Assembly (NCBI GenBank): GCA_015486155.1
Contig: WFSF01000202.1
Coordinates: 1 to 56,180, forward strand
From: Armatimonadota bacterium
Lineage (GTDB): Bacteria > Armatimonadota > Hebobacteria > Hebobacterales > Hebobacteraceae
Direction: 5' to 3'
DNA: 56,180 nucleotides
In this document: in pieces, positions 3,646 to 38,687 of the stretch
How the letters are laid out: each line of letters opens with the position of its first letter
How positions within the stretch are numbered: position 1 is the first letter of the stretch
The notes under the pieces: model-generated
The model's database searches: none
What the model was told of the DNA's origin: nothing
Seen by the model: the letters and a program-made list of their open reading frames with translations, nothing else
Made by a program: the position numbers and the translations under genes

Positions 3646-3704
3646 GTTTTTACACCTTATGTGTCATATGTGCTATCGCGGCGCCCGGGGCCCCGGCCAC
3701 GGTC

Positions 3705-4937: not shown

Positions 4938-5036
4938 GTGTGCTGCGTCCTTTCTGCTCTGTCGCCCGCATACCCTGCGAATGCAGAGGTTCCGCCTCCA
5001 CCGCCACCGAATCCCCTTCCCGGAGGACGGCGGCCG

Positions 5037-7177: not shown

Positions 7178-7312
7178 TTCGCCCCGATTGCCACGACCAA
7201 AGCTCCCATCCCCAAGGGGGTGACGGTGAAGATCTGCGGCACATGCCAGGCGCGATGCGGTCTCCACAAGGGCAGGCCGCTACAATTGCTCCCAGGTCGG
7301 AGAGCGTACAGG

Positions 7313-11149: not shown

Positions 11150-11389
11150 ATGAACCGCCGTCCCGCAATCACCGAGAAACAGGAGATCGCTGCCCGCCAG
11201 GAGCGCGCTTGGCACCTCGTGGTCGTGCGGCGGCTGAGCGAGCAGGAGGCGGCCGAGATACTGCAGGTCAGCGATCGCACCATCCGGCGCGACCTACGGC
11301 CATGCGCGCCCGGGGCACGCGCGCCCTTCGCAGCTTGTCCGGTCAGAGCAACGTCTTCCAGCTGGCCACTCACATGTGGACCCCGCTGA
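11150..11389 (+). CDS. Small HTH protein (sigma70 region-4-like), C-terminus possibly frameshifted
   Basis: MNRRPAITEKQEIAARQERAWHLVVVRRLSEQEAAEILQVSDRTIRRDL is a clean HTH. The last 30 or so residues (RPCAPGARAPFAAC...) look off-frame. Confidence 0.4.
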   Translation: MNRRPAITEKQEIAARQERAWHLVVVRRLSEQEAAEILQVSDRTIRRDLRPCAPGARAPFAACPVRATSSSWPLTCGPR

Positions 11390-11828
11390 CGGCTCGCTCT
11401 GCGCCCGCCGTGGACCGGAGGAATGGCTCCCGGCGGGGGTCATCTGCGAGAACTTCTCTGTTCACTTCCGCCTTCGGCGCAAATGTCCTTCTGAGGCGTC
11501 TGAGAGGGCTCCTGAGGAAAAGCCGCACAGGAAGCGCATCCCCGCCCTCCAGCGCGCCTATGAGTTTCAGGCGCTGCTCGAATCCGGGGCGGTGAACAAC
11601 AAGGCCGAAATCGCCCGGCAATACGGCCTCAGCCGGGCCAGGGTGACGCAGATCCTGAACCTGTTGAAACTCCCAGCCCAGGTGCTCGACTACATCGAAG
11701 AGCTGCCACGGGAAGAGCAACTCTGGTATTCGGAGCGGAGGCTGAGAAGAATCGCGGCTCTGGAATCGGGGGAAGAGCAGATGAAGGAGTTTGAGTGCAT
11801 ACAATCTACGCGGCAAGGCTCTGCCTAA
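11376..11828 (+). CDS. ParB/KorB-like HTH protein (start uncertain)
   Basis: The C-terminal half, NKAEIARQYGLSRARVTQILNLLKLPAQVLDYIEELP, is a ParB-type HTH. The N-terminal 40 or so residues are of doubtful coding quality. Confidence 0.45.
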   Translation: MDPADGSLCARRGPEEWLPAGVICENFSVHFRLRRKCPSEASERAPEEKPHRKRIPALQRAYEFQALLESGAVNNKAEIARQYGLSRARVTQILNLLKLPAQVLDYIEELPREEQLWYSERRLRRIAALESGEEQMKEFECIQSTRQGSA

Positions 11829-12047: not shown

Positions 12048-12266
12048 GTGGCTGACAAGCTGATGACGGTCGAGGAAGTGGCAGAGTACCTGCGGGTCAA
12101 GGTCTCGACGGTATACCAGTGGGCCAAGGAGGGGAAGATTCCAGCCTCCAAGGTAGGCCGTCTCTGGCGATTTGATCCCAACGAGGTGGAGGCATGGGTG
12201 CGGCAGCAGAAGATGGTTGACTGCCCGCCGAAAGTAAAAGCAATCCGAGATGACCGTCAGGCTTAA
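12048..12266 (+). CDS. Excisionase-family (MerR-like) helix-turn-helix DNA-binding protein
   Basis: MTVEEVAEYLRVKVSTVYQWAKEGKIPASKVGRLWRFDPNEVEAWV matches the excisionase-family HTH pattern. It is the first gene of the plus-strand operon. Confidence 0.75.
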   Translation: MADKLMTVEEVAEYLRVKVSTVYQWAKEGKIPASKVGRLWRFDPNEVEAWVRQQKMVDCPPKVKAIRDDRQA

Positions 12267-12318
12267 ATAGCTGAAACTCAATATGTTCTCAGAGCACTGA
12301 GAGGAGAGGGGAACGGTT

Positions 12319-15300
12319 GTGTCAAGCAAGATTGAGGACAAGCTCAGGAAGGGCGCTGTCATAGCGAGCAATATCTTTCCTGAGAAGGTCGAAGTGGTCG
12401 CGGTTGAGCCGAGCGGTTCAACTTATATAGTGCTGGCCAGGGGGCTCGAGACCGGGAAGATCCACGAGAAGATTCTGAGCCAGGAACAGGTCGAGGGACT
12501 AGAGACCGCCACAGCAACGGGAGATCTCAGCTTCGATGCCAATGCCGCGGAGTTCTTCCTCGGCATCGAGGCGCACCGCATTCGGCTAGCATTTGAATTC
12601 GATCCGCTCTTCGCTCTGAATGTCTCGCGGGTGGATCCGGTGCCCCATCAGTTGGAAGCTGTCTACAAGTACTTGCTCCCGCACCATCGTGCGGTGCGCT
12701 ACCTGTTGGCAGATGATCCCGGCGCAGGCAAGACTATCATGGCAGGCCTCGTGCTGAAAGAGCTCAAGATGCGGAGGATCGTGAACAGTTGCCTCATCGT
12801 CGTTCCTGGACATCTGAAGCCTCAGTGGCTGCGAGAAATGAAGGAAAGGTTCGGAGAACGGTTCACTATCGTGGACCGGAATACGATGAATGCTTCCTAC
12901 GGAAGCAATGTCTGGAAGGATCGGCGCTGGTGTATTACCTCCCTTGATTTCGCCCGGCAGGACGATATCAAAGAGACGCTGCGTGGCACGCACTGGGACT
13001 TGGTGATTGTTGACGAAGCTCACAAGATGGCCGCATACCAGTACGGCGAGAAGGTTGACAGGACCAAGCGTTATCAGTTGGGAGAGGTGCTGGCTGAACA
13101 TTCCAGCAACCTACTGTTCCTGACCGCCACGCCACACCGAGGTGATCCTGATAACTTCCGGCTTCTACTCTACCTGCTGGATGCCAATGTCTTCTCAAGC
13201 AAGGAAAGCATGGAGCGTGTACTCAGGGAGGACCGGGAACAATACGTGCTACGGCGCATGAAGGAAGACCTCAAGGGTTTCGATGGGAAAAGGCTGTTTC
13301 CGCCGCGCGAAGTCATGACAATCGGGTACAAGCTCTCGAAGCCGGAACAAGACTTATACAACGAAGTGACTGCTTACGTAAAGAAGTATTACCGACTCGC
13401 GCAGAGGGTCGAAGATGTCAGGCGCAGACAGAATATTACCCTGGCTTTGATAGTGCTGCAGAGACGCGCGGCGTCCAGCGTGCGGGCACTACGAAGTTCT
13501 CTCGAGAATAGGCGAAGGCGCTTGCAGGGCATGCTCGACAACCACCAACTGGTACAGGAGATGGTTGACATTTACGGCGACCCCGAAGACATGCCCGAAG
13601 AGGAACGATGGAAGATCGAGGGTGCGCTTGAATCTTTGACGACCGCGCAAAGCTTTGAGGAGCTGCAAGACGAGATTCAAGAATTAAACCGCCTGATCGA
13701 CGCCGCGAAAAAAGTAGAACGCGCCGAAGTGGAGACCAAGCTCACGCGTTTGAAGGAGCTCCTCGCAGAGCGAATGACCAAGGGCAATGCCGACGAGAAG
13801 CTTCTTGTTTTCACAGAAGCGATGGCCACCCTGCGCTATCTGGCCGAGAAGATCACGTCGTGGGGATACTCGGTGTGCACCATCCACGGCAACATGAGCC
13901 TGGAGCAGCGAATCAAAGCGGAGGAGGAGTTTCGGCACTCCAAGCAGGTAATGATCGCCACTGAGGCAGCAGGCGAAGGTGTCAACCTGCAATTCTGCTG
14001 GATGATGGTCAACTACGATATTCCGTGGAATCCGAATCGTCTTGAGCAGCGCATGGGACGGATTCATCGGTACGGACAAAAACACCCGATCGTATTCATC
14101 TTCAATATGGTGGCGCTGAACACGCGGGAAGGCCGGGTGTTGCATAAGCTCTTTGAGAAGATTGAGACGATGAAGCAACACCTAGGACCCGATCGTGTCT
14201 ATGACGTGATTGGAGAGATATTGGAGGAGGCAAAGACCGAGGAACTCCTTCGAAGAGTGGCTTTGGGCGAGCAAGAGGTCACGGAGGCAGAGGAAGAGAT
14301 AGACGCCCTTTCGGTGGAGCGGGCAAAAAAGGAAATATCGAAACTCATTGGCGAGGCTCTCGCCATTCGGGTTGATGAACGGTGGAGCAGAGATCGGGCC
14401 CGGTTATCCGAGCAGAACAAGCTCGTTCCCGAGTATCTGGAGAACTTCTTTGTCCGTGCATTCGAGGCCATCGCCGGTAAGGGCAAGGTGAAAAGGAGGG
14501 CTGACGGATTCCTGAGTATTAGGTGGGTACCGGCAGAAATCAAAGACGTATCCTATGACTTTCGGATGCGTTACGGTCTGGTAGATGACCACTACCCGAA
14601 GTTCACCTTTGACAAGAACCTGCTGAAAGAAGAAGAGACCGCCGATCTCATTGCGCCAGGTCATCCCCTTATGGAGGCAGTCATCGAAAAGGTTCTGCAA
14701 AAGTTCGGCCCCAATCTTCGGCTTGGCGCGGTATACGAAGACCCCGACGGTGAGATGAACGGCCTGATCTGGTTCCTGGAGGGGGCGGTGACCGATGGCA
14801 TGGGTGATATAGCCGGCAGACGGATGTTCGCGGTATACGCTCCGGTTGAAGGAGAGGTGCAACCGATGCGAGCCACTGCCTTGTGGGACCTGAAGCCGGC
14901 TGGTGGGAAGCCTTCGGAAGAATTGGTGGAGCTCGCTTCGCGCAGGTCCGAGGTTGTTACCCATCTGGTGTCCAACGAATTCGAGTCCTATCGACGATTG
15001 CTGCAGAAGGAGCGTGAGCGAGAGATCGCAATCAAGAAGAAGTATGGGCTGGCAGCATTGAAGCGTCGCATCTTCGACTTGGACGTGAAGATGACGGAGT
15101 ATCTGGAGAAGGGAGGCTCCGAAGACGATATCGCTTACGAGAACTACGACCGAGACATGGACCGCCTGAAGCATGAAAAGGACAGGATGGAAGCCGAGCT
15201 GAGGCGCGAAGCGAACTTGACGCTGACTCCGCCAAGGGTAATTGGAGTGGCGGCCGTCATGCCAGCAGTTGGCGCAGGCAGGCTTTCCCGGGACCCCGAA

Positions 15301-15657
15301 ATTGAAGCCATCGGTATGAGGGTCACGATGGAATACGAGCGGAAACAAGGCCGGAGTCCACGCGACATGTCAGCGGAGAAGCTTGGTTACGATGTGGTCT
15401 CGGAGAAGGAGGGCGAAGTCAGATACATAGAAGTGAAGGCCAGGGCGGGCGAAGGCCAGATATTCCTTACACCAAATGAATGGATGACAGCCAGGCAGCT
15501 GGGAGACAAAGCCTGGCTATACGTGATCGTGGACTGCGCAAAGAAGCCAAGGCTGCACACCATCCAGAATCCGGCCGCTAAGCTAAAGGCGGCCCGCGAG
15601 GTGAAAATAGTGCGGTACGCAGTGGCCCCTGAGGAGTGGAAGAGGGTGGTCTCGTGA
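12319..15657 (+). CDS. SNF2-family helicase with C-terminal DUF3883 / PD-(D/E)XK-like nuclease domain
   Basis: 1112 aa. Helicase motifs: LLADDPGAGKT (I), LVIVDEAHKM (II), LFLTATPHRGD (III), YDIPWNPNRLEQRMGRIHRYGQ (V/VI). The C-terminus, GYDVVSEKEGEVRYIEVKARAGEGQIFLTPNEW...WLYVI, is the DUF3883-type restriction-endonuclease-like core (D...E-V-K). Confidence 0.9.
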   Translation: MSSKIEDKLRKGAVIASNIFPEKVEVVAVEPSGSTYIVLARGLETGKIHEKILSQEQVEGLETATATGDLSFDANAAEFFLGIEAHRIRLAFEFDPLFALNVSRVDPVPHQLEAVYKYLLPHHRAVRYLLADDPGAGKTIMAGLVLKELKMRRIVNSCLIVVPGHLKPQWLREMKERFGERFTIVDRNTMNASYGSNVWKDRRWCITSLDFARQDDIKETLRGTHWDLVIVDEAHKMAAYQYGEKVDRTKRYQLGEVLAEHSSNLLFLTATPHRGDPDNFRLLLYLLDANVFSSKESMERVLREDREQYVLRRMKEDLKGFDGKRLFPPREVMTIGYKLSKPEQDLYNEVTAYVKKYYRLAQRVEDVRRRQNITLALIVLQRRAASSVRALRSSLENRRRRLQGMLDNHQLVQEMVDIYGDPEDMPEEERWKIEGALESLTTAQSFEELQDEIQELNRLIDAAKKVERAEVETKLTRLKELLAERMTKGNADEKLLVFTEAMATLRYLAEKITSWGYSVCTIHGNMSLEQRIKAEEEFRHSKQVMIATEAAGEGVNLQFCWMMVNYDIPWNPNRLEQRMGRIHRYGQKHPIVFIFNMVALNTREGRVLHKLFEKIETMKQHLGPDRVYDVIGEILEEAKTEELLRRVALGEQEVTEAEEEIDALSVERAKKEISKLIGEALAIRVDERWSRDRARLSEQNKLVPEYLENFFVRAFEAIAGKGKVKRRADGFLSIRWVPAEIKDVSYDFRMRYGLVDDHYPKFTFDKNLLKEEETADLIAPGHPLMEAVIEKVLQKFGPNLRLGAVYEDPDGEMNGLIWFLEGAVTDGMGDIAGRRMFAVYAPVEGEVQPMRATALWDLKPAGGKPSEELVELASRRSEVVTHLVSNEFESYRRLLQKEREREIAIKKKYGLAALKRRIFDLDVKMTEYLEKGGSEDDIAYENYDRDMDRLKHEKDRMEAELRREANLTLTPPRVIGVAAVMPAVGAGRLSRDPEIEAIGMRVTMEYERKQGRSPRDMSAEKLGYDVVSEKEGEVRYIEVKARAGEGQIFLTPNEWMTARQLGDKAWLYVIVDCAKKPRLHTIQNPAAKLKAAREVKIVRYAVAPEEWKRVVS

Positions 15658-18506
15658 AACGACTCATAGAGATGGATTTTCCGATATTTGAAGTCAGCCG
15701 GGAATCGGCTCGCGAGAAGAGCATTCGTCACGGCCACATCTCCACGCTCCACATCTGGTGGGCGCGGCGTCCCCTGGCTGCGTGCCGGGCAGCTGTCTTT
15801 GCGTCTCTCGTGCCTACACCAGCCGGCATGACAGAGCGAATACCAGAATACGTGGAGTTCCTGCTAAGCACTCTGCCTCCAGCGCCTGATGAGAAGCCCA
15901 GGGAATGGGATGGTATCAAGGCGCACAAGCGGTTAGTGAAATTCACGGCAGACCTTTCTCCCTGGGAGGCCACACAAAACAAGCAACTGATAGACAGGGC
16001 GCGTAAGATAATCTTGGTGGCCAAGGCAGTCATTGACGGTCTCCGTGGCGAGGCGCTCCAAGAAGTGATTGATGGGAAGCGCAAGATCGATCCTCCGAAG
16101 GTATTAGATCCCTTCGCGGGAGGTGGGTCAATTCCATTGGAAGCGCTCCGACTCGGATGTGAAGCATACGCCGTGGACTACAATCCTGTGGCAGTGCTGA
16201 TCCTCAAAGCCACCCTGGAATACCCTCAGAAGTACGGCAAACGCCTCGTGGAGGATGTGAAAAAGTGGGGTGACTGGGTGCTCGAAGAGCTTCGGAAGGA
16301 GGTCGGCCGGTTCTACCCAGAGGAGGGAGATCCGGGCCAGGGCAGACTTGTCGCGGGTGCAAAGAAGGGTGGCTGGGCACCTGTGGGTTACATCTGGGCA
16401 CACACCATAGTGTGCCAGAATCCATCTTGTGGGGCCGAGATACCTCTGATGCGTCAGTTCTGGCTGCGGAGAAAAGAGCGCGATGGTCGGATTGACTGGG
16501 AGGATTCTATATATCTTCATCCGATCGTGGACAAGAAGAAGAGAACAGTCGAGTTCGAGGTAGTGGAAAGGCGGAGAATCGAAGATTTTGACCCAAGCAA
16601 AGGAACTCGGCCAACAACGAAGGCACGCGCGACTTTTCTTTGTCCAGTGTGCGGTGCGACTTACAAAGCGAAAGACCTGAGGAAATACGGAAAGAACAAA
16701 GGCCTCGGGCATCGGATGATCTGTGTTGTGCTGCACAATGAGAACCATCCCGGCAAGAAATACCGCGCAGCGACAAGCGAAGATACCGCACTCTATGAGG
16801 AGGCTGCAAGAGCGCTGGAAGAAAAGGTCAGCAACTGGGATGGCGAATATCCGGCGATTCCGGACGAGCCATTGCCCCAAGACGGCACGCTTGGCTTCAG
16901 TGTGAACAAGTACGGCTATAACACGTGGGGTGACTTGTTCAATGCGCGCCAGTTGCTGGCCCTGATCGCAATTGTGAAGAAGTTAAGAGAGGCGGTGGCA
17001 AACATTGCCAAGCACGCCAGTAGAGACTCCTTTGCAGGTGCTGTAGCAACAGGGCTCGCATTTTGCGCTGATCGGATCGCTGACTACAATTCCCGTTGCT
17101 GTATGTGGGCGGCGCCGGGGGAGTTCGTTGCGCATACGTTCAGCAGACAAGCACTTCCAATGGTATGGGATTACTTTGAGTTGAATCCCGTGAGTAGCAC
17201 CACGGGAGGTTGGGTCAGCGCGCAGGATTGGGTGCGTAGAGCCCTAGAGCACTGTGCGCGTGTGTCATCGTGCGGACTGGTAAAGCAGGGGAGCGCTACG
17301 GGGCGCCCATGGCCCGGGAACGAATATCACGGCATAGTGACCGATCCTCCGTACTATGACAATGTCCCCTACTCGGATGTGTCTGACTTCTTCTACGTCT
17401 GGTTAAAGCGCCTGCTGAGTGACGTCGACGAGGAGCTCTTCGCTACCCCGCTCACCCCGAAGTCGCAAGAGATAATCCAGGAGCCGGTGCGCCATGAGAG
17501 AGACAACAACCGGGCTAAAAGATTCTATGAGGAAATGATGGGCAGGGCCTTCAGTGAGATGGCGAAAGCGCTGGAGTCCCACGGCATCAGTACGATAATC
17601 TTCGCACATAAGACAACCGAAGCATGGGAAACGCTGGTAAGTGCGTTGCTGCAGGCTGGCTTGGTGCCTACGTCCTCCTGGCCGATACACACGGAGAGGG
17701 GGGCGCGGTTGCGAGCGCGGGAGAGTGCTGCCCTAGCATCGTCATTCTTCCTTGCTTGCCGCAAGCGTGAAAGCGAGCAGGAAGTCTATTTCAAGGATAT
17801 CCGAGAGGCGCTACACAAGCGCATCCATGAACGCCTGGAGCACTTTTGGGAGCAAGGAATTCGCGGTGCGGACTTCTTCATCTCTGCTATCGGGCCTGCT
17901 GTTGAGGTGTTTGGGAAATACGCCAAAGTGAAGAAGGTTACCGGTGAGGAAGTGACAGTAGCGGAGCTTCTGCACGAAGTACGCAAGGAAGTCACGGACT
18001 ACGCACTGAGGCGAATACTGGGGGGAATCCAGCTGGACAAGATAGATGCCATCACGCGTTTCTACATTTTATGGCGATGGACATACAACGGTGAAACCGT
18101 CGAGTATGATGACGGGCGTAAGCTGGCACAGGCGGTCGGCATCGAGTTGGACGATATTCGCGGACGAGAAAAACTGGTGACTGGCAAGGACAAGATAGCG
18201 GTTGCGAAACCACAAGAGCGAGACGTTGATAGCATCGCAACGCGGGCACCGGTGAACCTAGTTGATGCTCTGCACAAAGCGTGCCTGCTGTGGAACGCCG
18301 ATCGGACGAAGGAACTGCAGGACTTCCTGGCCGAGACTGGCTACGGAACGGATTCTTCCTTTTGGGAGACGGCACAAGCATTGTCTGAACTTCTGCCAGA
18401 TGGAGACAAGGAGAAGCAAATGCTCCAAGGTTTGCTGATGAAAGCGCCTACGGTGGCCGGTCAGGCAGAGAAACAATTGACTCTTAATGGGGGGTGGACT
18501 TCATGA
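15654..18506 (+). CDS. DUF1156-family DNA methyltransferase (N6-adenine/N4-cytosine type, with Zn ribbon)
   Basis: GTG 15654 overlaps the helicase TGA (GTGA). The N-terminus KRLIEMDFPIFEVSRESAREKSIRHGHISTLHIWWARRP is the DUF1156 signature. Also DPFAGGGSIPLEA (motif I), VTDPPYYDNVPY (motif IV), and the Cys pairs CQNPSCG and CPVCG. Confidence 0.9.
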   Translation: MKRLIEMDFPIFEVSRESAREKSIRHGHISTLHIWWARRPLAACRAAVFASLVPTPAGMTERIPEYVEFLLSTLPPAPDEKPREWDGIKAHKRLVKFTADLSPWEATQNKQLIDRARKIILVAKAVIDGLRGEALQEVIDGKRKIDPPKVLDPFAGGGSIPLEALRLGCEAYAVDYNPVAVLILKATLEYPQKYGKRLVEDVKKWGDWVLEELRKEVGRFYPEEGDPGQGRLVAGAKKGGWAPVGYIWAHTIVCQNPSCGAEIPLMRQFWLRRKERDGRIDWEDSIYLHPIVDKKKRTVEFEVVERRRIEDFDPSKGTRPTTKARATFLCPVCGATYKAKDLRKYGKNKGLGHRMICVVLHNENHPGKKYRAATSEDTALYEEAARALEEKVSNWDGEYPAIPDEPLPQDGTLGFSVNKYGYNTWGDLFNARQLLALIAIVKKLREAVANIAKHASRDSFAGAVATGLAFCADRIADYNSRCCMWAAPGEFVAHTFSRQALPMVWDYFELNPVSSTTGGWVSAQDWVRRALEHCARVSSCGLVKQGSATGRPWPGNEYHGIVTDPPYYDNVPYSDVSDFFYVWLKRLLSDVDEELFATPLTPKSQEIIQEPVRHERDNNRAKRFYEEMMGRAFSEMAKALESHGISTIIFAHKTTEAWETLVSALLQAGLVPTSSWPIHTERGARLRARESAALASSFFLACRKRESEQEVYFKDIREALHKRIHERLEHFWEQGIRGADFFISAIGPAVEVFGKYAKVKKVTGEEVTVAELLHEVRKEVTDYALRRILGGIQLDKIDAITRFYILWRWTYNGETVEYDDGRKLAQAVGIELDDIRGREKLVTGKDKIAVAKPQERDVDSIATRAPVNLVDALHKACLLWNADRTKELQDFLAETGYGTDSSFWETAQALSELLPDGDKEKQMLQGLLMKAPTVAGQAEKQLTLNGGWTS

Positions 18507-21256
18507 AACCATGGTGGAAGGTAGCAATTCCGCACAAGGATATTCGGGATGGACGGTTTGATCCATCTGTTTTCGCCATTGACCTGGGAGACGTGACCAG
18601 GCCTGGCGCTGCTGGAGAGTATCGAGACCCGGCCAAGTTCTTTTCCCGTACCTACATGACGAACGGCCTCCGGGAGCTGCTCACAAAGGTTCTGGTGACT
18701 CTATTCAAAGGAGAGGCAAAGGGCGGGGTTCAGCGCATTGCGCCCGTGGTTCAGTTGGTAACGCCTTTCGGAGGCGGCAAGACGCATTCGTTGCTGGCGC
18801 TGTACCATCTTTTGCGACACTATCCAAAGGTCAAGTCGCTGGAACAGATTCGGAACATCGTGAACGAAGTGGGCCTGAAGGCCATCCCGAAGACCAACGT
18901 GGCCTGCATTGACGGGACGCACCTCGATCCGCTGGCGGGGGATAAGAAGAAAGAAGGCATGACCATTCGGACGCTCTGGGGGGAGATCGCCTACCAATTG
19001 GGCGGGCCTGCGCTCTATGGGCTGGTGCGCGAGCACGACGAGAAGCTGGTATCCCCGGGAAAGAAGAAATTGCGGGAGGTTCTGGAGGCGGCTTCGCCCT
19101 GCTTGTTGATCCTAGACGAAACGTTGGAGTACATAGTGCGAGCCCAGGGCGTGGAGGACAAGGAAGGCAAGAACCTGCGGGGGCAAACGATGGCCTTCAT
19201 GCAGGAACTTACTGGCGTAGTGGCGTCGCTGGTGGAAGACGAGGAGCACAGTGCGGTCCTGGTGGTGACGCTACCGTCCAGTCACACGGAGCGCTATGAC
19301 GACAGCGCGGAAAAAGACTTCCAGACTCTGAGTCACATTACGAAACGGCTTGAACTGAGGCATTCACCAGTCGAAGGTATGGAGATATACGAGATTGTAC
19401 GACGCCGGTTGTTCGACACGATCAAAGATGGGGACGCCGTGTCAGAGGCGGCCCGGTCATTTCACGAAGTCTTGGAAAAGCTCGGGAACTCTGTGCCGAA
19501 GGAGTTCCGGGATGAACGGTATCGCGAGAAGATTGAGAGGGCATATCCCTTCCATCCCGAGCTTATTGATGTGCTGTACGAGAAGTGGGGGGCGTTGGTG
19601 CAGTTCCAGAGGACGCGCGGGGTGCTGCGCTTCCTGGCTCTGGTCGTGAGCGACCTGTACCGCAAGAACGATCCAAACGCGTTGATCATGCCGGGCTCGG
19701 TTGACCTGAGCAACAGGCTGATCAAGGACGAACTGCTCGCATATCTGGACGAAGGGTACTCGGCAGTAGTGGACTCCGATATTGCTGGAGCGGGATCGAA
19801 GTGCGCCGCGATAGACCGTGAGCTTCCCAGCGAGTTCGAGAGATACAATGTGGCGACGAGGGTGGCCACGCTGATATTCCTGCATTCGGTCCGGACGAAC
19901 GGGAGTCCACAGATTCCAACCAAGCGCATCAGGGCCGCGACCGTGATGCCTGATCTGGGTTCTCCTGTCATCAGCGAAGCGCTGGAGCGCATGGGCAGCC
20001 TCTGGTTTCTGTACTCTGACGAGAAGCGGGAGAACTGGCTGTTTCGGAAGGAGCCTGGGATTTCCAAGATCGTCACCGAGAAGATGGACTCGCTCGATGA
20101 CGAGGATGTGTTGGACTTCGTGAACACGCAGCTTGTCGAAGTCGTAGGTAATGGCAGTGTGTTCGTCGCCCCTGAGAACCCTGCGAAGATCCCGGACAGT
20201 GAAGCGCTGAAGTTCGTGTTCTTGTCCCCGCGGCATCCATACGGGGAGGAGAGCCCGGGCGATGCCGAACGATTTTGTGCGCGAGTGCTGAATGAGTATC
20301 TGCCCACCAGCCCGCGACGCAGGAAGAACACGCTGGTATTCGTGCTCCCCGCTGCTGACAAGGTTGGCAGGATACTGAGCTTGGGGCGCGAGTTGCTAGC
20401 TCTGCAGCAGGTGGCGGAGAGCACAGAGATCAAGGAAACTCTCTCGGAGAGCCAGACTAGAGATCTGAAGGCTAGACTGACGGATATTCGAGCCCGCTTC
20501 TTTAACGAGCTGCAGATAGCATACTCCCAAGTGCTGGTGCCGTCAGCTGAAGGATTTACCAACTACCCACTGGGGCTGAACGTGTTGAGAGGCCGCGGCA
20601 AGATAAGGGAGTACGTCGAGCGGTATTTGAAAGACAATGAAATCCTTGTGGATGATATTGAACCATCCCTGTTGGTCTCCAGAGCCTGGCCGAACAACAC
20701 CAATCATGTGACCACAAGCGAGGTTTATGAGGCCTTCCTGAAATACACTGGAGTTGAGATGATAACCGGGAAGGATGTGATCCGACGGGCCGTGGCAAAA
20801 GGGGTCAGCACAGGTGTGTTCGGATATGGCCTGGCTGAGTATCCAGAACAGTTGGAAGACATACGCTTCAAGGAACGCATGACGGAAAACGAGGTCGAGC
20901 TCAGCGAAAATGCCTGGCTGATTAAGGCGGAAGTGGCCCAAAAGATGGTAAAGCCGGAGGAAGGGGGGTCTGAGGGCCCGCAGGAGCCGCCAGAGACTGG
21001 GGCCACCAAAGAGGAAGGTGAGGAAGAAGAAGCGGAACCGCAACAAAGGCACATTCAAATCACCATTGATGCGTCTGAGGCCAGGATCCACGACATCTTT
21101 CGAGGCGTTATCAAGCCATTGAAAGATGAAGGGGCGGACGTGAGAGTTACAGTAAGCGTCGAGGCCCAGGGTGAGATCAGCGAACAGACTCTAAAGATGA
21201 AGGTGCGTGAGACGCTCCAGCAGTTAGGGGCAAAGTTTCGGATTGAGGAGGCGTAG
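18503..21256 (+). CDS. DUF499-family P-loop ATPase (BrxC/PglY-like)
   Basis: ATG 18503 overlaps the methyltransferase TGA (ATGA). MKPWWKVAIPHKDIRDGRFDPSVFAIDLGDV is a DUF499-type N-terminus. Walker A is TPFGGGKTHSL and Walker B is CLLILDETLEY. About 917 aa. Confidence 0.85.
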   Translation: MKPWWKVAIPHKDIRDGRFDPSVFAIDLGDVTRPGAAGEYRDPAKFFSRTYMTNGLRELLTKVLVTLFKGEAKGGVQRIAPVVQLVTPFGGGKTHSLLALYHLLRHYPKVKSLEQIRNIVNEVGLKAIPKTNVACIDGTHLDPLAGDKKKEGMTIRTLWGEIAYQLGGPALYGLVREHDEKLVSPGKKKLREVLEAASPCLLILDETLEYIVRAQGVEDKEGKNLRGQTMAFMQELTGVVASLVEDEEHSAVLVVTLPSSHTERYDDSAEKDFQTLSHITKRLELRHSPVEGMEIYEIVRRRLFDTIKDGDAVSEAARSFHEVLEKLGNSVPKEFRDERYREKIERAYPFHPELIDVLYEKWGALVQFQRTRGVLRFLALVVSDLYRKNDPNALIMPGSVDLSNRLIKDELLAYLDEGYSAVVDSDIAGAGSKCAAIDRELPSEFERYNVATRVATLIFLHSVRTNGSPQIPTKRIRAATVMPDLGSPVISEALERMGSLWFLYSDEKRENWLFRKEPGISKIVTEKMDSLDDEDVLDFVNTQLVEVVGNGSVFVAPENPAKIPDSEALKFVFLSPRHPYGEESPGDAERFCARVLNEYLPTSPRRRKNTLVFVLPAADKVGRILSLGRELLALQQVAESTEIKETLSESQTRDLKARLTDIRARFFNELQIAYSQVLVPSAEGFTNYPLGLNVLRGRGKIREYVERYLKDNEILVDDIEPSLLVSRAWPNNTNHVTTSEVYEAFLKYTGVEMITGKDVIRRAVAKGVSTGVFGYGLAEYPEQLEDIRFKERMTENEVELSENAWLIKAEVAQKMVKPEEGGSEGPQEPPETGATKEEGEEEEAEPQQRHIQITIDASEARIHDIFRGVIKPLKDEGADVRVTVSVEAQGEISEQTLKMKVRETLQQLGAKFRIEEA

Positions 21257-21277
21257 AGCGGCCAGAAGTGGTTATGG

Positions 21278-22048
21278 GTGATCTCGATGTTGGAGCCAGG
21301 ATATTACGCCAATATTTTCCAGGTTAATCTAGACGCAGAGCGAGCGACGGTCGTTGCAGCGCCCAGGAAGAAGTATCCAGAAATCAAGTCGCTACGGGAT
21401 GAGATCCAAAGGGATGGGAGACAGGTTTGGGTGTACGCTCCCACACGTGGCGACCGGGTTTTCGGTTACGGTCCTGATGCGGAATGGCTGCTAACGAAGA
21501 GTTTCAAGACGTGCACGGTGGTCTTCGAGCGGGAGCCGAGACTGACAACGCGGATGATCCTGGACGGGATTGCCACAAAGGCTGGGACGTTCGGTTACGC
21601 GCCCATGTTCGAAAAGATGGGACGTTGTAGGTTGTTCAAGTGGCAGGAGCCGGAACGCATCGTGGCCCAGCGTGTGTCCGTTTTCAAGGGATATGATATC
21701 CGCGCTCTATTCCTTGCGGATGAAACAAACGAGGGGGCCGGGGCAGTGACATTTCACTTGGTTGTCGATGTGTGCTACGCGTTGAGGGATGACCTCGCTA
21801 ACGCGCTCAATTTCAGAGAGCTGGTAGAGCGGTTTGGCAGCGCGGCTCTAAAAGAGGTGCGTCAGATTCAACGTGACCTCATTCCTACAGGGATTAATAC
21901 TGAGGTCTCGCGTGAACGCCTGGCAAAGGACATCGTTCCTTTCGTAAAAGAACTTGGGAGCTTTGCTCTGCCCTGTAACATCCAGGCGAAGGTCCTCTCT
22001 GATCCGGTACGTATAGTGGTGGGTGCTCAAGATGAATCTCTATGGTGA
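21278..22048 (+). CDS. pAgo partner protein, APAZ-like (N/L1/L2-type) without a recognisable effector domain
   Basis: 256-aa ORF (GTG 21278 or ATG 21287) whose 3' end overlaps the start of the PIWI gene. Its size and position match the APAZ partner of short pAgos. I saw no SIR2, TIR, Mrr or DREN motifs. The assignment is positional plus compositional only. Confidence 0.5.
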   Translation: MISMLEPGYYANIFQVNLDAERATVVAAPRKKYPEIKSLRDEIQRDGRQVWVYAPTRGDRVFGYGPDAEWLLTKSFKTCTVVFEREPRLTTRMILDGIATKAGTFGYAPMFEKMGRCRLFKWQEPERIVAQRVSVFKGYDIRALFLADETNEGAGAVTFHLVVDVCYALRDDLANALNFRELVERFGSAALKEVRQIQRDLIPTGINTEVSRERLAKDIVPFVKELGSFALPCNIQAKVLSDPVRIVVGAQDESLW

Positions 22049-23288
22049 ATTGCTGAATTCTCCGCAACTCAGGTTCAACTATTCGTCGCCTGCAGCGCGA
22101 GATGCGTGGAACCGGCGTGGCCTTGCCCGGTTTGGGCCTTATGACTCAACGCTCTTTCCGAAGGACCGTGTGGAGGCCGTCGTACTCTACCCCACTGGAA
22201 GCAAACGAGAGCACGACCTGCTGATCAACGGGTTGACGGTAGGCGAAGGAAACTTTGGAGGGTTTCAGCAGCTGTTCAAGATTCCCATTCATTTCATAGA
22301 TCACATCTCCTTTGGCACCGAGCAAGATCTGGGGTCACATCTCGATCATATAGCATCTTTGCCCCATCCCCCGGACATAGTATTCGCTCTCCTGCAGCGT
22401 CGCGAGTCTGACACTTACGTGTCGTGCAAATCGCGACTACTTGCAAACGGCATCCCAAGTCAGATGATCCTGGTGAACAAGCTGAATGATCCGCGGGGCA
22501 GGCAGTATGTGCTTGAGAACCTAGCACTAGCATCTTATGCCAAGGTGGGCGGAACACCGTGGACCATAGCCGCCCCAAGTCCAGACGAAGAGGTGGTACT
22601 AGGAGTCAGCAGAGCGCGTGACGCATCGATGAGGTACTATGTGGGGTACGTAGTGCTCTTCACCCGTGATGGTGACTTTCTCTTCGTTAGCTCTAAAGCA
22701 CCTGTTGTGGAGTGGGATGATTACGTCAAGGGCCTATCCGGAATGGTAGAGAGCGCGATTAGGCAGTTTGAAGAGGAGCGCGGAGCCCCGTCATCTATTG
22801 TCGTTCATTTTCACAAGAATCCTGGTCGTAGGGAGATCGAGGCAATCACGCAGGGATTACAGAACGCCGCGCAAGATATGCCTTTCGCGATCGTTCATCT
22901 GAACGAGTTCTCAAACTTTCGTCTCTTTGATGTGCGGCAATCATCCTACATTCCACCTGCAGGTCTCAAGGTGAACCTCAGTCAGACTGAAGCTCTTCTG
23001 TTACTCGACGGTCTGAGAAATGGCCGAAGAAGAAGGATGGGCGTGCCACGTGTCCTCGACATCCGACTTGATAGTCGATCCACAATGGCTTATGACGAGT
23101 TTCCTAGACTTGTGCAGCAAGTCAATGACTTGGCCCATGTCAACTGGCGAGGATTCAACGCTGCGGCTGTTCCCATCACGATCAGTTATTCCAGGCTCAT
23201 AGCTAGAATGCTCGTCGAAATCGGGATCAATGCCTGGAACGAAATAGTTTCGGAGGGACGACTACGACACAAGGCGTGGTTTCTGTGA
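22023..23288 (+). CDS. ago: Short prokaryotic Argonaute (MID-PIWI), catalytically inactive
   Basis: PIWI hallmark ASYAKVGGTPWTIA is present. The MID 5'-end pocket is YVSCK...PSQMILVNKL (Y-x3-K, Q, K). DEDX positions are substituted (VVLGVSRAR in place of GxD; VVHFHKNPG in place of hRDG). The hydrophobic C-terminal end ...KAWFL is also present. Start is GTG 22023 or ATG 22032. Confidence 0.8.
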   Translation: MLKMNLYGELLNSPQLRFNYSSPAARDAWNRRGLARFGPYDSTLFPKDRVEAVVLYPTGSKREHDLLINGLTVGEGNFGGFQQLFKIPIHFIDHISFGTEQDLGSHLDHIASLPHPPDIVFALLQRRESDTYVSCKSRLLANGIPSQMILVNKLNDPRGRQYVLENLALASYAKVGGTPWTIAAPSPDEEVVLGVSRARDASMRYYVGYVVLFTRDGDFLFVSSKAPVVEWDDYVKGLSGMVESAIRQFEEERGAPSSIVVHFHKNPGRREIEAITQGLQNAAQDMPFAIVHLNEFSNFRLFDVRQSSYIPPAGLKVNLSQTEALLLLDGLRNGRRRRMGVPRVLDIRLDSRSTMAYDEFPRLVQQVNDLAHVNWRGFNAAAVPITISYSRLIARMLVEIGINAWNEIVSEGRLRHKAWFL

Positions 23289-24448
23289 ATCTCGACTTCC
23301 ACCGGTTGAAAGAAGCAGTTCATCGAGAGATACTCGACAGACTCAGCCAGACCAATCTGCCGGCAGAAGCTCCTGACTTCTCCTGGCTTACGTACGGTTT
23401 ATGGCATCTTGAAGGGAGTGACGGAACCAATGCCGGTCCTGCCTGCAAGCGTCTTGAGAGGTGGGCACTGGCCGAGGAGGGGGAGCGGCGAGAACGCTAC
23501 CTAGCTCCGCTGTGTCTCTCTTACTGCCTATCTCAAGACGAGAAGGCTAAACAGGTTATCGGCAAGAAGATCCGTCAACTACTAGCCCGTTTGCTTGGCG
23601 TCCGAAGCAGCACGAAATTCGACGTTTTGAATGACCCCAGCCAGGTTCTGGCCGTAGCAATGGCAAAGGGAGCGCTTGACACAGAAATGGTTGAGCAGAC
23701 TGTCAAGCGAGTTTCCTCTGCGATCGGCGGGAGGACAATTCGGAAAGCATTGTTCAGTGCAGCCATTACTAAGCTAACAGGAAGCCCAGTTCCTAACGAG
23801 GTTCTTTCGACGCCAACAGGAGACCTGGAGGATGTGATAGCCGTCCTATGGCTCGCACGCCGGTACAATATTGCCGATGTCGTGGGTTTGTGGGAGAAAG
23901 TTAGTCAGACCATGCTTCCAATCCTCGGAAACGGGACCTTTCGAGATTTGGGAGTATCTTACCCGAGCGTAGCACTTCTTGCTGAAGTGCTGCAGTTGGA
24001 AACAACGTCACCTAGTCCGCAGATTCTGTTCAATCTTTTTCCGTTTGAGCCTGAGATTCGGAAGATTGCCGGGAGCCACTTCCACGAGGGACGGTTTACC
24101 ACAGCGGTTTTCCAGGCCACGATGAAGCTGAACGAGTTCATACAAGCTAGGTCCGGAAGTCAGAAGTCCGAAGGCGACCTCGTACAGTACACCATGCAGC
24201 CTCGTGGTTCCAAGCCCCCGATTATCCAATTCAACGAATTCTGGACAGAGATTTCGGGAAAGAATGAGCAATCAGGTCTGGCATTGATCGCGAAAGGAAT
24301 CTTCACGGGGTTCCGCAACCCTAAGGGACACAAACCGGAGGATCATCCTTTAGGGCGAGTGGATGCCTACGAGGCCTTGGCCCAGCTAGTCGTGATTGAC
24401 TATATCTGGAAAAGGGTATCTCGGGCCAGGATACGCCCCGTCAGGTAG
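23276..24448 (+). CDS. Protein with C-terminal TIGR02391/Hypoth_Ymh domain (HEPN-type Rx4H motif)
   Basis: Its start overlaps the pAgo stop. The C-terminal roughly 120 aa, HFHEGRFTTAVFQATMKLNEFIQARSG...GDLVQYTM...GIFTGFRNPKGHKPED, matches my memory of the TIGR02391 consensus, including R-N-P-K-G-H (Rx4H). The N-terminal roughly 270 aa are helical and unassigned. Confidence 0.65.
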   Translation: MVSVNLDFHRLKEAVHREILDRLSQTNLPAEAPDFSWLTYGLWHLEGSDGTNAGPACKRLERWALAEEGERRERYLAPLCLSYCLSQDEKAKQVIGKKIRQLLARLLGVRSSTKFDVLNDPSQVLAVAMAKGALDTEMVEQTVKRVSSAIGGRTIRKALFSAAITKLTGSPVPNEVLSTPTGDLEDVIAVLWLARRYNIADVVGLWEKVSQTMLPILGNGTFRDLGVSYPSVALLAEVLQLETTSPSPQILFNLFPFEPEIRKIAGSHFHEGRFTTAVFQATMKLNEFIQARSGSQKSEGDLVQYTMQPRGSKPPIIQFNEFWTEISGKNEQSGLALIAKGIFTGFRNPKGHKPEDHPLGRVDAYEALAQLVVIDYIWKRVSRARIRPVR

Positions 24449-24456
24449 AACCTCGC

Positions 24457-25203
24457 TCACCACTCCCCGCACAGCTCCTTGTACCCGCAGATTCCGCACA
24501 TGAAGTTCTCGTTGGGATAGAAGATTCCCGTGTTGATGGCGCGTTCAACGTGCTCGGCCAGCCTGAGAAAGCGGTCAATGTCGGCCTGCGCGCGGGTTGT
24601 CGGTAACTGCTGGACCTTTGGCTGTTTCGTGCGCACGAGCACGTCAAGCCTCAGGCCCTTTTCCGGCTTTCCGCGGAGAGCCCGGTAGGCGAGCGCGTAT
24701 GCGGTGAGCTGGATATCTGTCTCTGCGGCATGCGGCGGGAAGCTGCGCCGCGTGGTCTTGTGGTCAATGATGGTCCCCTGCTCATCTATCAGGTCAATAT
24801 ATCCCTTCAGAGGGAGCTCCGTCACGCCGGTTTCGAGCAGAAACTCCCTCTCGACTTCGACCGGCTGGACTCTTGGGGCGACCTCCCGGTGGTAAGCGCC
24901 CAGCAACCTTACCCCGTCATCCTTGAGATGCCCCGGCTTCTCGTCCTCCTGAAAACGCGCGTACCGGCTCTCTTCTTCCCAGCGCTCGCTGAAAATATCG
25001 TGCAGCTGCTCCAGCGGCAGATCCTGGCGGGTCTGAATCTTCTGGCGATAGTTCTGCTCCAAGGTCTCGTGCACGGTCCTGCCGAGGGTGACATCGCCGC
25101 TCGGAGGAATCTTCAGGCCGCATACATAGCGGAAGTAGTACTGGAGAGGACAGCGCAGATACATGCGCAGCTGGGTGACCGACAGGTAGGGTTCATCTCC
25201 CAT
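24457..25203 (-). CDS. PD-(D/E)XK nuclease, Cas4/RecB-like with 4-Cys cluster
   Basis: 248 aa. YLRCPLQYYF near the N-terminus plus C-terminal CGICGYKELC gives the C...CxxCx5C pattern. The nuclease core is GYIDLIDEQGTIIDHKTT (D...D-x-K). Confidence 0.8.
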   Translation of the reverse strand: MGDEPYLSVTQLRMYLRCPLQYYFRYVCGLKIPPSGDVTLGRTVHETLEQNYRQKIQTRQDLPLEQLHDIFSERWEEESRYARFQEDEKPGHLKDDGVRLLGAYHREVAPRVQPVEVEREFLLETGVTELPLKGYIDLIDEQGTIIDHKTTRRSFPPHAAETDIQLTAYALAYRALRGKPEKGLRLDVLVRTKQPKVQQLPTTRAQADIDRFLRLAEHVERAINTGIFYPNENFMCGICGYKELCGEW

Positions 25204-25669
25204 GCTCCCCCTCTCCGGTATCCTTGCACTCCGTCCTTTCCTTCGCGCACTGCTGCATGTGAGCGTTGCCTGTCTCTTTCCCGTGACGCAGCACGTATTC
25301 TTCCATGCGCTCGGCCAGAGTAATCGCCAGGGAAAGCCTCTGCTCGGGCAGCAGCGTGGTCTCCTTGAGCAGTTCCGCCGCGGCGCGCAGGCAGCTCATC
25401 CGCGTGGCACGCAGCGCCTCAGGCACGCGGACGAGTGTGCCGGTCGTGATGATTGAAGGTCCTGGTGAACGCCGCAAGGCAGTGAGGTTCCGGTAGCGGC
25501 CGGAGTGGGTGAAGGCGAACCCGACGGTGTCGCCTTCGCGGATGTTCTCGATCAGCTGCCGGTCCCAGGTGCTGTAGCGCTTTCCGCCGATAGCCAGCAC
25601 CCAGTACTTCGATCCGTCCGCCCTCTCATTGTGCCAGATCCGTTCCACAACGCCCTGCACTTCGCTCAC
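25193..25669 (-). CDS. Hypothetical protein, paralog of 25666..26070 (small beta-rich N-domain plus helical C-domain)
   Basis: MSEVQGVVERIWHNERADGSKYWVLAIGGKRYSTWD...RMSCLRAAAELL aligns with MRGIIEQVWENESRNGQKYLTVQIDGERYSVWD...RLSCLKSAAEIL in the neighbouring gene. It overlaps both neighbours, consistent with translational coupling. Confidence 0.6.
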   Translation of the reverse strand: MSEVQGVVERIWHNERADGSKYWVLAIGGKRYSTWDRQLIENIREGDTVGFAFTHSGRYRNLTALRRSPGPSIITTGTLVRVPEALRATRMSCLRAAAELLKETTLLPEQRLSLAITLAERMEEYVLRHGKETGNAHMQQCAKERTECKDTGEGEHGR

Positions 25670-26070
25670 CCGGTCTGGTCGGGAACGGACGAGCCCAGAT
25701 CGTCGTCTCCGACGTATCTTTCGAATACCTTCGCGGTCTCGATGACGAGGTCTCGCTTGGCGTCAGGATCGAGCTGGGCGGGAGCGAGGATCTCGGCTGC
25801 GGACTTGAGGCAGCTCAGGCGGGTAATCTGTCTGTCCCGATGGTTGTGGTAGGCCGGGGCCTCGTTTTGCTCCCCTGGGTCCCGCACTTGCGTGATGTTC
25901 TTGAAGTTCCCGCTCTGGCGAAACTCGTATTCGACCTCGACTCCCTCTCGCAACTGGTCAAAGTACTTCGTGTCCCAGACGCTGTACCGCTCACCGTCTA
26001 TCTGAACCGTCAGGTACTTCTGGCCGTTCCTGCTCTCGTTCTCCCAGACCTGTTCGATAATCCCTCTCAT
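25666..26070 (-). CDS. Hypothetical protein, paralog of 25193..25669
   Basis: Start set at ATG 26070, preceded by GGAGGTG. The longer track ORF (to 26154) adds a non-homologous leader. Its stop overlaps the next start (ATGA). Confidence 0.6.
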   Translation of the reverse strand: MRGIIEQVWENESRNGQKYLTVQIDGERYSVWDTKYFDQLREGVEVEYEFRQSGNFKNITQVRDPGEQNEAPAYHNHRDRQITRLSCLKSAAEILAPAQLDPDAKRDLVIETAKVFERYVGDDDLGSSVPDQTG

Positions 26071-26166
26071 GCTACACCTCCCCTCCCCCGCCGGCGCAAG
26101 GCCGGGTGCCGTAAGTCCGGACAGCCCGGCATGATGGCGAGGAAGCATGAACACAGCCCCGGGTGC

Positions 26167-26349
26167 TCAGATGTCGGCGTCGTCATTCAGTATCACCCTG
26201 GGGCAAAAGTGGCGGCAGCGCTTCACCTCTCTCGCGGTTGGAATCCGCTTGAGCTTGGCGCACCAGATGCCTCGGTCGTTCTCGATGCCGCAGATGCACT
26301 CTCGGCACTTCCTGAGGCGCGGCCGGTCAGGTTGATAGCTGCCTACCAT
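26167..26349 (-). CDS. Small Cys-rich (zinc-binding?) protein
   Basis: This is the last 60 codons of track ORF 26167..26673: MVGSYQPDRPRLRKCRECICGIENDRGIWCAKLKRIPTAREVKRCRHFCPRVILNDDADI. It lies between the integrase stop and the paralog genes. The upstream part of the track ORF overlaps the integrase and was discarded. Confidence 0.35.
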   Translation of the reverse strand: MVGSYQPDRPRLRKCRECICGIENDRGIWCAKLKRIPTAREVKRCRHFCPRVILNDDADI

Positions 26350-26437
26350 AGAGGGAAAATTGCCGCCGGGGATATTACAGATATCGGAGGGGCAGAGCGC
26401 GGTTCCTGCGGTTGCGCCGCACGATAGAAGAGCGCTT

Positions 26438-27637: not shown

Positions 27638-27835
27638 AAGCGATTACCCACGACAGGTAGGAAGAGGTTTCCGTGGGCATCTCGCTTTTCATGCCATGCC
27701 CCTGCCGGGCATGATATGGAAAGTGGAATGCCCAACTCTGCATTAGCTGCAGCCACCTCTCCAGCAAATAATTGGCAGCGCGAGTATTTATATTTTGCGC
27801 CCCGAACGGAGATATACAACGCCTTGTCGGTGAAA

Positions 27836-33260: not shown

Positions 33261-33389
33261 CGGGCTTGCTAAAGGGGCCCAAACGTGTAGTCGCGCGTCC
33301 TCATGCGAGAGACATCATTCCCAGAAGTTTTCTAACTCGCCCTGCCATACCTCCTCACGTTTGCCTCAGATGCCCACCTACAGAGTGGC

Positions 33390-38683: not shown

Positions 38684-38687
38684 GTAA

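Follow-up and report, generated by a model that had tools for sequence, protein, structure and literature searches.

The stretch of DNA analysed here is contig WFSF01000202.1 of an Armatimonadota bacterium, whose whole length of 56,180 nucleotides (nt) is referred to as the window, and the block under study is the plus-strand run of genes at 12048-24448. We read this block, with a probability of about 65%, as a composite operon in which two self-sufficient known modules form a layered defence: a complete Hma system of methylation-based restriction, and a three-gene Argonaute unit (hereafter the triad) that behaves as a portable cassette and nests in ATP-dependent, methylation-based restriction operons. 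Both modules were known already, and the new part is the habitual nesting of the triad in restriction-modification (RM) operons of at least three unrelated kinds. Gene content, domain identities, the fold of the fifth gene product, the intact motifs and the recurrent embedding are what was observed here.

The listing of open reading frames (ORFs) and the direct reading of their junctions gave seven co-directional plus-strand genes in the block. They are listed below together with the convergent gene that follows them (aa, amino acids; AF2, AlphaFold2).

12048..12266, plus strand: small HTH_17 (helix-turn-helix) protein, 72 aa; Pfam HTH_17 1.4e-20; PADLOC mad1 7.9e-14
12319..15657, plus strand: HmaA, 1112 aa; SNF2 helicase with a C-terminal DUF3883/NOV_C PD-(D/E)XK nuclease
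15654..18506, plus strand: HmaB, 950 aa; DUF1156 N6-adenine-type DNA methyltransferase
18503..21256, plus strand: HmaC, 917 aa; DUF499 AAA+ (ORC/Cdc6-like) ATPase
21278..22048, plus strand: ORF5, N-L1-L2 subunit of a split long-B Argonaute by AF2 fold match, 256 aa
22032..23288 (alternative GTG start 22023), plus strand: MID-PIWI subunit, 418 aa (421 from 22023); Pfam Piwi
23285..24448 (alternative start 23276), plus strand: predicted Ymh-HEPN effector, 387 aa (390 from 23276); Pfam Hypoth_Ymh
24457..25203, minus strand: convergent PD-(D/E)XK / Cas4-like nuclease; Pfam PDDEXK_1 1.2e-35

The end of HmaA overlaps the start of HmaB by the four letters GTGA (15654-15657), the end of HmaB overlaps the start of HmaC by ATGA (18503-18506), and HmaC is separated from ORF5 by 21 nt (21257-21277). 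The start of the Argonaute gene (ATG 22032 or GTG 22023) lies within the final codons of ORF5, whose stop is at 22046-22048, and its own stop overlaps the start of the HEPN gene, where GTG 23285 would give a GTGA overlap. Only 8 nt (24449-24456) lie between the stop of the HEPN gene and that of the convergent PD-(D/E)XK gene. An earlier sequence-only reading of this DNA had described these seven genes with their overlaps and gaps, the 8-nt convergent spacing and a lower G+C of the block, and direct reading bore all of this out; the 52-nt gap between the HTH_17 gene and HmaA was missing from its list of junctions. Over 12-25 kb the G+C is 0.53-0.58, compared with 0.61-0.63 in the flanking DNA. 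The Hma genes of the block (G+C 0.55-0.56; 0.62-0.69 at third codon positions, GC3) lie slightly above the triad (G+C 0.52-0.54; GC3 0.56-0.60).

Scans of 11.3-25.3 kb for sigma-70 promoters and intrinsic terminators gave background levels (7 against 5.3 expected and 11 against 12.3, respectively), with a consensus that may not suit this DNA; an archaeal host is possible because the island carries an Orc1/Cdc6 gene, and the scans may therefore have used the wrong model. The Rfam search of the whole window returned zero RNA families. The HTH_17 protein is excisionase/MerR-like and may be a regulator of the operon or an excisionase of the island. It is uncertain whether it belongs to the unit, and in other loci its gene is not a conserved neighbour of the triad.

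Identity of the two modules

Genes 2-4 (12319-21256) are a complete Hma system, also called the type-1 DUF499-centred BREX-related (BR) system, and all three core genes are full length and arranged in one operon. HmaA matched the PADLOC HmaA model over positions 7-1147 of 1176 (5.9e-215) and the Pfam families SNF2-rel_dom, Helicase_C and NOV_C (2.1e-22); its motifs GAGKT (135), DEAH (232) and IEVK (1037) are intact, and it is predicted to be the restriction effector. HmaB (PADLOC HmaB 1.9e-145; Pfam DUF1156 2.3e-23) keeps the motifs FAGGG (154) and DPPY (564) and is predicted from its sequence to mark self DNA. HmaC (PADLOC HmaC 5.3e-165; Pfam DUF499 5.7e-40) keeps the Walker A motif GGGKT (90) and the Walker B motif LLILDE (201), and we regard it as free of an N-terminal HEPN extension because its alignments to other triad-linked HmaC proteins begin at residue 1-10. 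The domain calls of the sequence-only reading (SNF2, DUF3883, DUF1156, DUF499, Piwi and Hypoth_Ymh) are supported by both Pfam and PADLOC. The RM/BREX-like cassette that it had seen is real, but the description was incomplete, as this cassette already has a name of its own. BREX proper was considered and rejected: none of the seven genes encodes PglZ, and the PADLOC models for BrxC (1.1e-3) and PglX (1.8e-8) scored far below the Hma models.

Hma was given its second name in a 2026 survey, which recorded it in 2446 taxa and interpreted it as RM-like (PMC12839542). According to this survey, HmaC carries an N-terminal HEPN domain in 56% of type-1 systems, and the window protein differs from these in lacking it. 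The survey also describes "auxiliary and backup effectors", HEPN included, near BR systems and proposes backup suicidal effectors for BREX and BR; Argonaute and PIWI are unmentioned in it, though HEPN and other nucleases are given as auxiliary effectors (PMC12839542). The window operon further differs from the described type-1 BR systems in running on uninterrupted into a three-gene Argonaute module, which in relatives is located between HmaA and HmaB.

Genes 5-7 (21278-24448) are a split long-B prokaryotic Argonaute (pAgo) with an effector that combines a helical domain and a Ymh-HEPN domain. The sequence-only reading had taken them for a short-pAgo module, and this assignment had to be changed because the relatives of the pAgo are of the long-B group, its pocket is of the YK type, ORF5 has the N-L1-L2 fold and the HEPN protein matches the Aga_HEPN model. 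The MID-PIWI protein matched Pfam Piwi (1.3e-16) and PADLOC pAgo (1.6e-73), and the pAgo_II model was aligned at positions 290-724 of 724 only. In a search of PDB sequences, its closest solved structures were RsAgo (2.2e-27), EcAgo (3.7e-24) and AfAgo (3.5e-22), and short-pAgo structures reached 7.6e-6 (SPARSA pAgo) or worse. Pocket and catalytic residues were read from an alignment of 29 Argonaute homologues, in which Y129, K133, Q144 and K171 are invariant in the family; identical residues are aligned in RsAgo, where we take them to form the 5'-phosphate pocket. The sequence thus read predicts a YK-type MID pocket (YKQK) for 5'-phosphate guides. The motif of the usual first catalytic Asp reads GVSR, with a Ser that is invariant in the family, as judged from sequence alignment, and no conserved D/E/D/H set is evident among the pAgo positions that at least 95% of the sequences share; the protein is predicted to be catalytically inactive.

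ORF5 gave zero matches to Pfam, PADLOC and PDB sequences, and its identity was for that reason taken entirely from its fold. The AF2 model (confidence score pLDDT 89.6) was matched best by AfAgo-N in Foldseek (8old, 8olj, 8ok9 and 8pvv; E 1.5e-8 to 1.4e-7, TM-score 0.58-0.69), followed by the N-terminal part of RsAgo, and on this model ORF5 is the N-L1-L2 subunit, equivalent to AfAgo-N and SiAga1. The N subunit is kept directly 5' of the pAgo gene in 94 loci. In the public gene call ORF5 has 205 aa and a later start; we favour the 256-aa form from GTG 21278 because G8, Y10, N12 and F14 are conserved and because of the fold model.

Gene 7 is predicted, from its sequence and its AF2 model, to encode the effector, with an all-helical N-terminal domain (about residues 1-245) and a C-terminal Ymh-family HEPN ribonuclease (RNase) domain. 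The protein matched Pfam Hypoth_Ymh at 3.4e-20 (72.5 bits against a cut-off of 25; the Ymh family is PF09509 / TIGR02391) and the PADLOC model Aga_HEPN over its full length (6.2e-70), and the Rx4H motif R344-N-P-K-G-H349 is invariant across 55-71 homologues. Its model (pLDDT 93.7) is almost wholly helical, with about 245 residues preceding the HEPN domain. Searches with this protein against PDB sequences and with Foldseek gave nothing significant, the top match being to alpha/alpha-barrel enzymes (E 0.04).

Manakova et al. drew a split long-B pAgo followed by a helical-domain-HEPN effector in 2024 (Fig. 6B; PMC10954474), and PADLOC models the three-gene N / MID-PIWI / helical-HEPN architecture as Aga_HEPN. 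The same three-gene order and overlaps are found in fAfAgo (AfAgo-N, AfAgo and Af1317) and SiAgo (SiAga1, SiAgo and SiAga2), which also share with the triad an upstream N-L1-L2 fold, a MID-PIWI protein related to AfAgo/RsAgo with a YK-type pocket and, as far as the helical model of our protein suggests, a downstream effector with an N-terminal helical domain (PMC10954474). They differ in the effector domain, which is a Ymh-HEPN RNase in the triad and a membrane protein in fAfAgo and SiAgo, and consistent nesting in RM operons is unreported for AfAgo and SiAgo in the literature searched. SPARTA, SPARSA and SPARDA resemble the triad in their inactive MID-PIWI protein, in its N-L1-L2/APAZ-like partner and in their abortive logic. 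Membership of the short pAgos was rejected on the search values given above (SPARSA pAgo against RsAgo) and on the pocket, which is YK and not HK or RK in the typing of PMC6299218. A short-pAgo effector-APAZ fusion (TIR, SIR2, Mrr or DREN) was rejected as well: ORF5 consists of nothing but the N-L1-L2 fold and matches no domain in Pfam or PADLOC, and the effector is a separate third protein.

Recurrence of the triad in restriction operons

The loci compared were 35 from species genomes, found in a scan of 185,579 genomes, and the best 80 of 482 metagenome matches, ranked by similarity and taken with flanks of up to 10 kb. ORF calls in these loci were mechanical, lineages are loci collapsed at 90% pAgo identity, and the context count was restricted to lineages with 3 kb or more of flank on each side. 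About 100 loci, from many bacterial and archaeal phyla, keep the N / MID-PIWI / HEPN triad with the same gene order and overlapping junctions. Its bacterial carriers include Zixibacteria, WOR-3, Chloroflexota, Acidobacteriota and Verrucomicrobiota, and its archaeal carriers include Archaeoglobaceae, Methanoperedens, Hadarchaeum, Bathyarchaeia and Woesearchaeota.

Clustering of all flanking ORFs gave only three kinds of recurrent neighbours of the triad. The first is the type I set HsdM/HsdS/HsdR, confirmed with Pfam; the second is Hma, with the DUF1156 methyltransferase, the DUF499 ATPase and an HmaA-like helicase; and the third consists of an SNF2 helicase, a DrmMI/PglX-like methyltransferase (PADLOC) and a DEAD-DUF1998 helicase of 1400-1800 aa (Pfam), which fits the ARMADA/DISARM family (PMC12458937). 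RM genes stand in the same-strand run of the triad in 18 of the 24 well-flanked lineages, with no RM neighbour in the other six, and 22 lineages have genes of a single system both 5' and 3' of the triad. The junctions between triad and partner are mostly -4 to +40 nt, and many of those from HEPN to HsdR or HsdS are 4-nt overlaps. By comparison, RM linkage was found in none of the seven lineages of a control clade, the split long-B pAgos with a SIR2 effector (Fisher p = 6.5e-4; the clade is small, n=7). When 65 unlabelled neighbours on the same strand were pooled and scanned with Pfam, sporadic defence and housekeeping genes were all that was seen, and no additional partner recurred. These results strongly support a non-random association of the triad with restriction systems at the level of the operon. 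The sequence-only reading had offered one integrated system as a possible explanation of the block, which is unsupported as stated because the triad keeps its own effector, switches among three families and also occurs without any of them; it is the weaker claim of association that stands.

Tblastn of the species-genome loci (about 24 triad loci) found HmaB or HmaC beside the triad in none, and the impression of a one-off arrangement that these loci gave was overturned because the metagenome scan found Hma-linked triads. The order HmaA-HmaB-HmaC-triad occurs in the window, L115, L073 and L038-L040, and the order HmaA-triad-HmaB-HmaC in L085, L104, L099, L096, L092, L100 and L101; the contigs of L084 and L088 stop short of any Hma gene 3' of the triad and therefore show only the junction of HmaA and triad. 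In L015 (Hadarchaeum) the ORF5 equivalent directly follows the C-terminus of an HmaA-like gene. The Hma-linked contigs come from several independent assemblies, and PIWI/Ymh genes accompany Hma cassettes in at least five distinct lineages of the pAgo, which argues against the one-off juxtaposition that the sequence-only reading had allowed for. In the pAgo tree, the Hma contexts take at least five separate positions and are interleaved with type I and ARMADA-like contexts.

Partners also appear to have been exchanged. The closest Hma relatives of the window are L039/L040, with identities of 74% for HmaA, 66% for HmaB and 81% for HmaC and only 55% for the pAgo. In these two loci (1-7711) the Hma genes are decaying, with HmaA split into two ORFs and HmaC truncated to 505 aa, with a 1.5-kb gap, and the triad is intact. 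L037 has the downstream backbone of the window (Cas4-like nuclease, integrase, Orc1/Cdc6, AbiE), but type I genes 5' of the triad. The picture suggested by these sequences is that of a portable cassette which keeps to methylation-based restriction systems while its partners swap.

Some loci showed further variation of the triad. L034:2339-4540 and L080:1787-4066 encode N-L1-L2 subunits of 733 and 759 aa with an N-terminal ADP-ribosylglycohydrolase domain (PF03747; E 8e-41 and 8e-43), and the HEPN effector is still downstream, which makes an Argonaute module with two enzymatic domains. A 127-aa Schlafen/AlbA_2 protein is encoded between HmaA and the N-L1-L2 gene at L085:4262-4645. The pAgo gene is in two or three fragments in L072 and L083 and is likely a pseudogene there, with no restriction-system neighbour.

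The literature searched contained only general statements, namely the enrichment of RM and abortive-infection (Abi) genes near pAgos, an HsdS orthogroup in pAgo operons (PMC6299218) and the occurrence of Ymh with R-M, and none on a triad built into Hma, type I or ARMADA/DISARM-like operons; Argonaute is unmentioned in the ARMADA paper (PMC12458937). No experimental study of long-B or "pseudo-short" Argonautes with HEPN effectors was found in the literature.

Proposed mechanism and competing explanations

In the layered defence that we favour, the DUF1156 methyltransferase would mark host DNA, and the DUF499 ATPase and the SNF2-DUF3883 helicase-nuclease would find and cut unmarked DNA. The N-L1-L2 and MID-PIWI proteins would form a heterodimer which, by analogy with fAfAgo, SiAgo and long-B pAgos, would load small 5'-phosphorylated guide RNAs. 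Pairing of the guide with invader DNA would cause a conformational change and the engagement of the helical domain of the HEPN protein, whereupon the Ymh-HEPN RNase would degrade RNA and lead to abortive infection or dormancy. The SiAgo-Aga1 complex bound to guide RNA and target DNA licenses effector binding (PMC11788926), and a target-licensed effector contact was inferred for long-B systems (PMC10954474). The triad would be co-transcribed and co-transferred with the restriction operon and would serve as a second, sequence-guided abortive layer behind the methylation-based layer; the co-transcription and the layered logic are what we infer. This reading matches the "auxiliary and backup effector" idea for BREX/BR (PMC12839542) and the PrrC paradigm.

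Several points weigh against the layered reading. The loci compared were chosen by similarity and are not a census, and the pAgo tree was built once, by neighbour joining, and carries no support values. The guide type, the target type and the activation of HEPN are given by analogy, and no expression, methylation, small-RNA or phage study of HEPN-type triads was found in the literature. The placements of the triad, between HmaA and HmaB, between HsdS and HsdR, or between the methyltransferase and the YprA-like helicase, are far tighter than ordinary clustering in defence islands, and because the embedding is so tight, functional coupling is possible and would be understated by speaking of two stacked systems. 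Moreover, the N-terminal HEPN is absent from HmaC in all five triad-linked lineages, which would happen by chance with a probability of about 0.44^5 = 0.016 if the lineages are independent, and this gives a hint that the triad HEPN might substitute for the missing one.

Functional coupling is taken furthest if the triad is a functionally dependent add-on of ATP-dependent, methylation-based restriction machines, in which the pAgo would find its target with the help of unwound or cut invader DNA made by the translocase-nuclease, or would recruit the nuclease in a guide-directed, methylation-independent manner. We hold this as a tentative possibility. If true, it would mean a new class of hybrid immunity across type I, Hma and ARMADA/DISARM-like systems, with epigenetic and sequence-guided recognition on one effector complex.

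An unlikely explanation, in our judgement, is that of one physically integrated system, in which the Argonaute heterodimer would be a second, guide-directed sensor that recruits or activates HmaA, HsdR or the YprA-like helicase, or in which restriction products or unwound DNA would feed the pAgo, with methylation protecting self. The position of the triad within partner operons is what speaks for it most directly, with spacings of -14 nt from HmaA to the N gene, 18-26 nt from HEPN to HmaB and -4 nt from HEPN to HsdR or HsdS, and the order HmaA-triad-HmaB-HmaC recurs in at least two lineages (L085; the L099/L104 group). An N6-methyltransferase and a superfamily 2 (SF2) ATP-dependent translocase/helicase with a nuclease are common to all three partner families (in part from PMC12458937), the 65 unlabelled neighbours contain no other recurrent partner, and the DUF499 proteins linked to the triad are always HEPN-less. 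A precedent is given by DdmDE (PMC11795196), where an inactive pAgo (DdmE) is encoded beside an SF2 helicase-nuclease (DdmD) and passes plasmids on to it; the likeness concerns the gene pairing alone, and the triad differs in having its own RNase effector and in standing beside a helicase-nuclease that is part of a complete methylation-based system. However, this effector is complete, with its RNase motif intact, and the three partner families are unrelated, with a varying place for the triad, which separates M from S or S from R in type I operons and follows HmaC or separates HmaA from HmaB in Hma operons. A specific protein interface is hard to reconcile with such switching of partners and variation of operon position. 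The absence of an RM neighbour in six of the 24 well-flanked lineages and the intact triad beside the decaying Hma of L039/L040 argue in the same direction, as does the rarity of the combination: Hma was recorded in 2446 taxa with PIWI unmentioned, and about 24 triad loci in the 185,579 species genomes include none beside HmaB/HmaC.

A guard function would place the triad closer to PrrC, with the intact restriction complex silencing the HEPN RNase, with or without the pAgo, until a phage anti-restriction protein unleashes it. PrrC is embedded in type I hsd operons, and in many relatives of the triad the HEPN RNase gene likewise lies inside an hsd operon. Ymh-family HEPN has been listed as "in operon with R-M", a Ymh-paraMORC fusion has been proposed as a PrrC/RloC analogue (PMC3710099), and the backup suicidal effectors proposed for BREX and BR (PMC12839542) would fit as well. 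The triad nevertheless brings a dedicated nucleic-acid sensor, the pAgo heterodimer, which is superfluous for a pure guard, and its moves from one unrelated complex to another speak against an inhibitory contact of a specific kind. Unlike PrrC and RloC, its HEPN protein has no ABC-ATPase or other PrrC-type regulatory domain (Pfam; AF2 model) and instead an all-helical N-terminus, and the host operon in the window is Hma and not type I. We consider the guard function improbable.

Adjacency without selective meaning, in which RM operons are tolerant landing sites in defence islands, appears very improbable from the counts of linked lineages (18 of 24, and 22 embedded on both sides, against none of seven in the sister pAgo clade), from the overlaps of the translational-coupling type at the junctions and from the persistence of the association through repeated partner changes. 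The window itself would suit such an explanation, being a dense island on an integrative element with an integrase, Orc1/Cdc6, an OLD nuclease, AbiE, a HerA-like ATPase and a NACHT-type STAND protein; the two halves of the block differ slightly in GC3, and a general excess of RM and Abi genes in the vicinity of pAgos was already noted in 2009 (PMC2743648).

That the HEPN protein is a guide-producing RNase and not an effector is scarcely credible: a HEPN RNase co-encoded and translationally coupled with a pAgo, Agap of AmAgo, was shown to make guide RNAs (PMC11162769), but Agap lies 5' of an active long-A pAgo, which has no YKQK pocket and takes 5'-OH guides, and Agap is without sequence homologues beyond its own group (PMC11162769), whereas the triad HEPN gene lies 3' of the pAgo in the downstream effector slot, with a helical N-terminal domain like the transmembrane, TIR and PD-(D/E)XK effectors of long-B pAgos (PMC10954474), and the window pAgo, without the first catalytic Asp, is predicted to be inactive and to have a 5'-phosphate pocket, which would not suit the 5'-OH ends left by HEPN cleavage.

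Mobile-element surroundings and wider meaning

The triad is followed on the minus strand (24457-31049) by the Cas4-like nuclease, a tyrosine integrase with a zinc ribbon (26438-27637) and an Orc1/Cdc6 ATPase (30006-31049). The same genes follow the triad in L037 and L038-L040, which indicates a shared, possibly archaeal, integrative-element backbone, and the convergent PD-(D/E)XK gene may belong to this backbone rather than to the defence unit. Just 5' of the HTH_17 gene, a 150-aa ParB-type HTH protein (11376-11828, plus strand) may mark the start of the mobile element. A tRNA scan of the window for an integration site found none, and a search for direct repeats as att sites around the island gave short, weak pairs only. 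A 38-nt direct repeat, 87% identical, at 33384-33421 and 34571-34608 brackets about 1.2 kb of small ORFs. The island holds other genes of defence type. An OLD-family nuclease (27836-29524, minus strand; AAA_15/AAA_21 and OLD-like TOPRIM) lies in a patch of low G+C (0.50-0.55) and is probably a defence gene, and an AbiEi/AbiEii toxin-antitoxin pair (31353-32938, plus strand) is also present in L037. Three further genes resembling defence cargo lie in the low-G+C stretch at 35502-44186, encoding a metallo-beta-lactamase-fold protein (35502-36509, minus strand), a HerA-like DUF87 ATPase (36683-38743, minus strand) and a 1511-aa protein with a terminal NACHT C-terminal NCAB2 domain (39651-44186, plus strand).

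The classification of the Argonaute genes is corrected by this analysis, from an orphan short pAgo lacking an APAZ effector to a split long-B pAgo with ORF5, an unannotated gene, as its N half. Hma/BR systems have hardly been characterised, and the loci compared here provide a natural set of constructs, in which one triad stands beside various partners and one partner occurs both with the triad and without it, for asking whether systems that share an operon add up or interact. One Argonaute cassette that has been built repeatedly into three unrelated restriction families is a testable case of innate (epigenetic) and guide-directed immunity combined.

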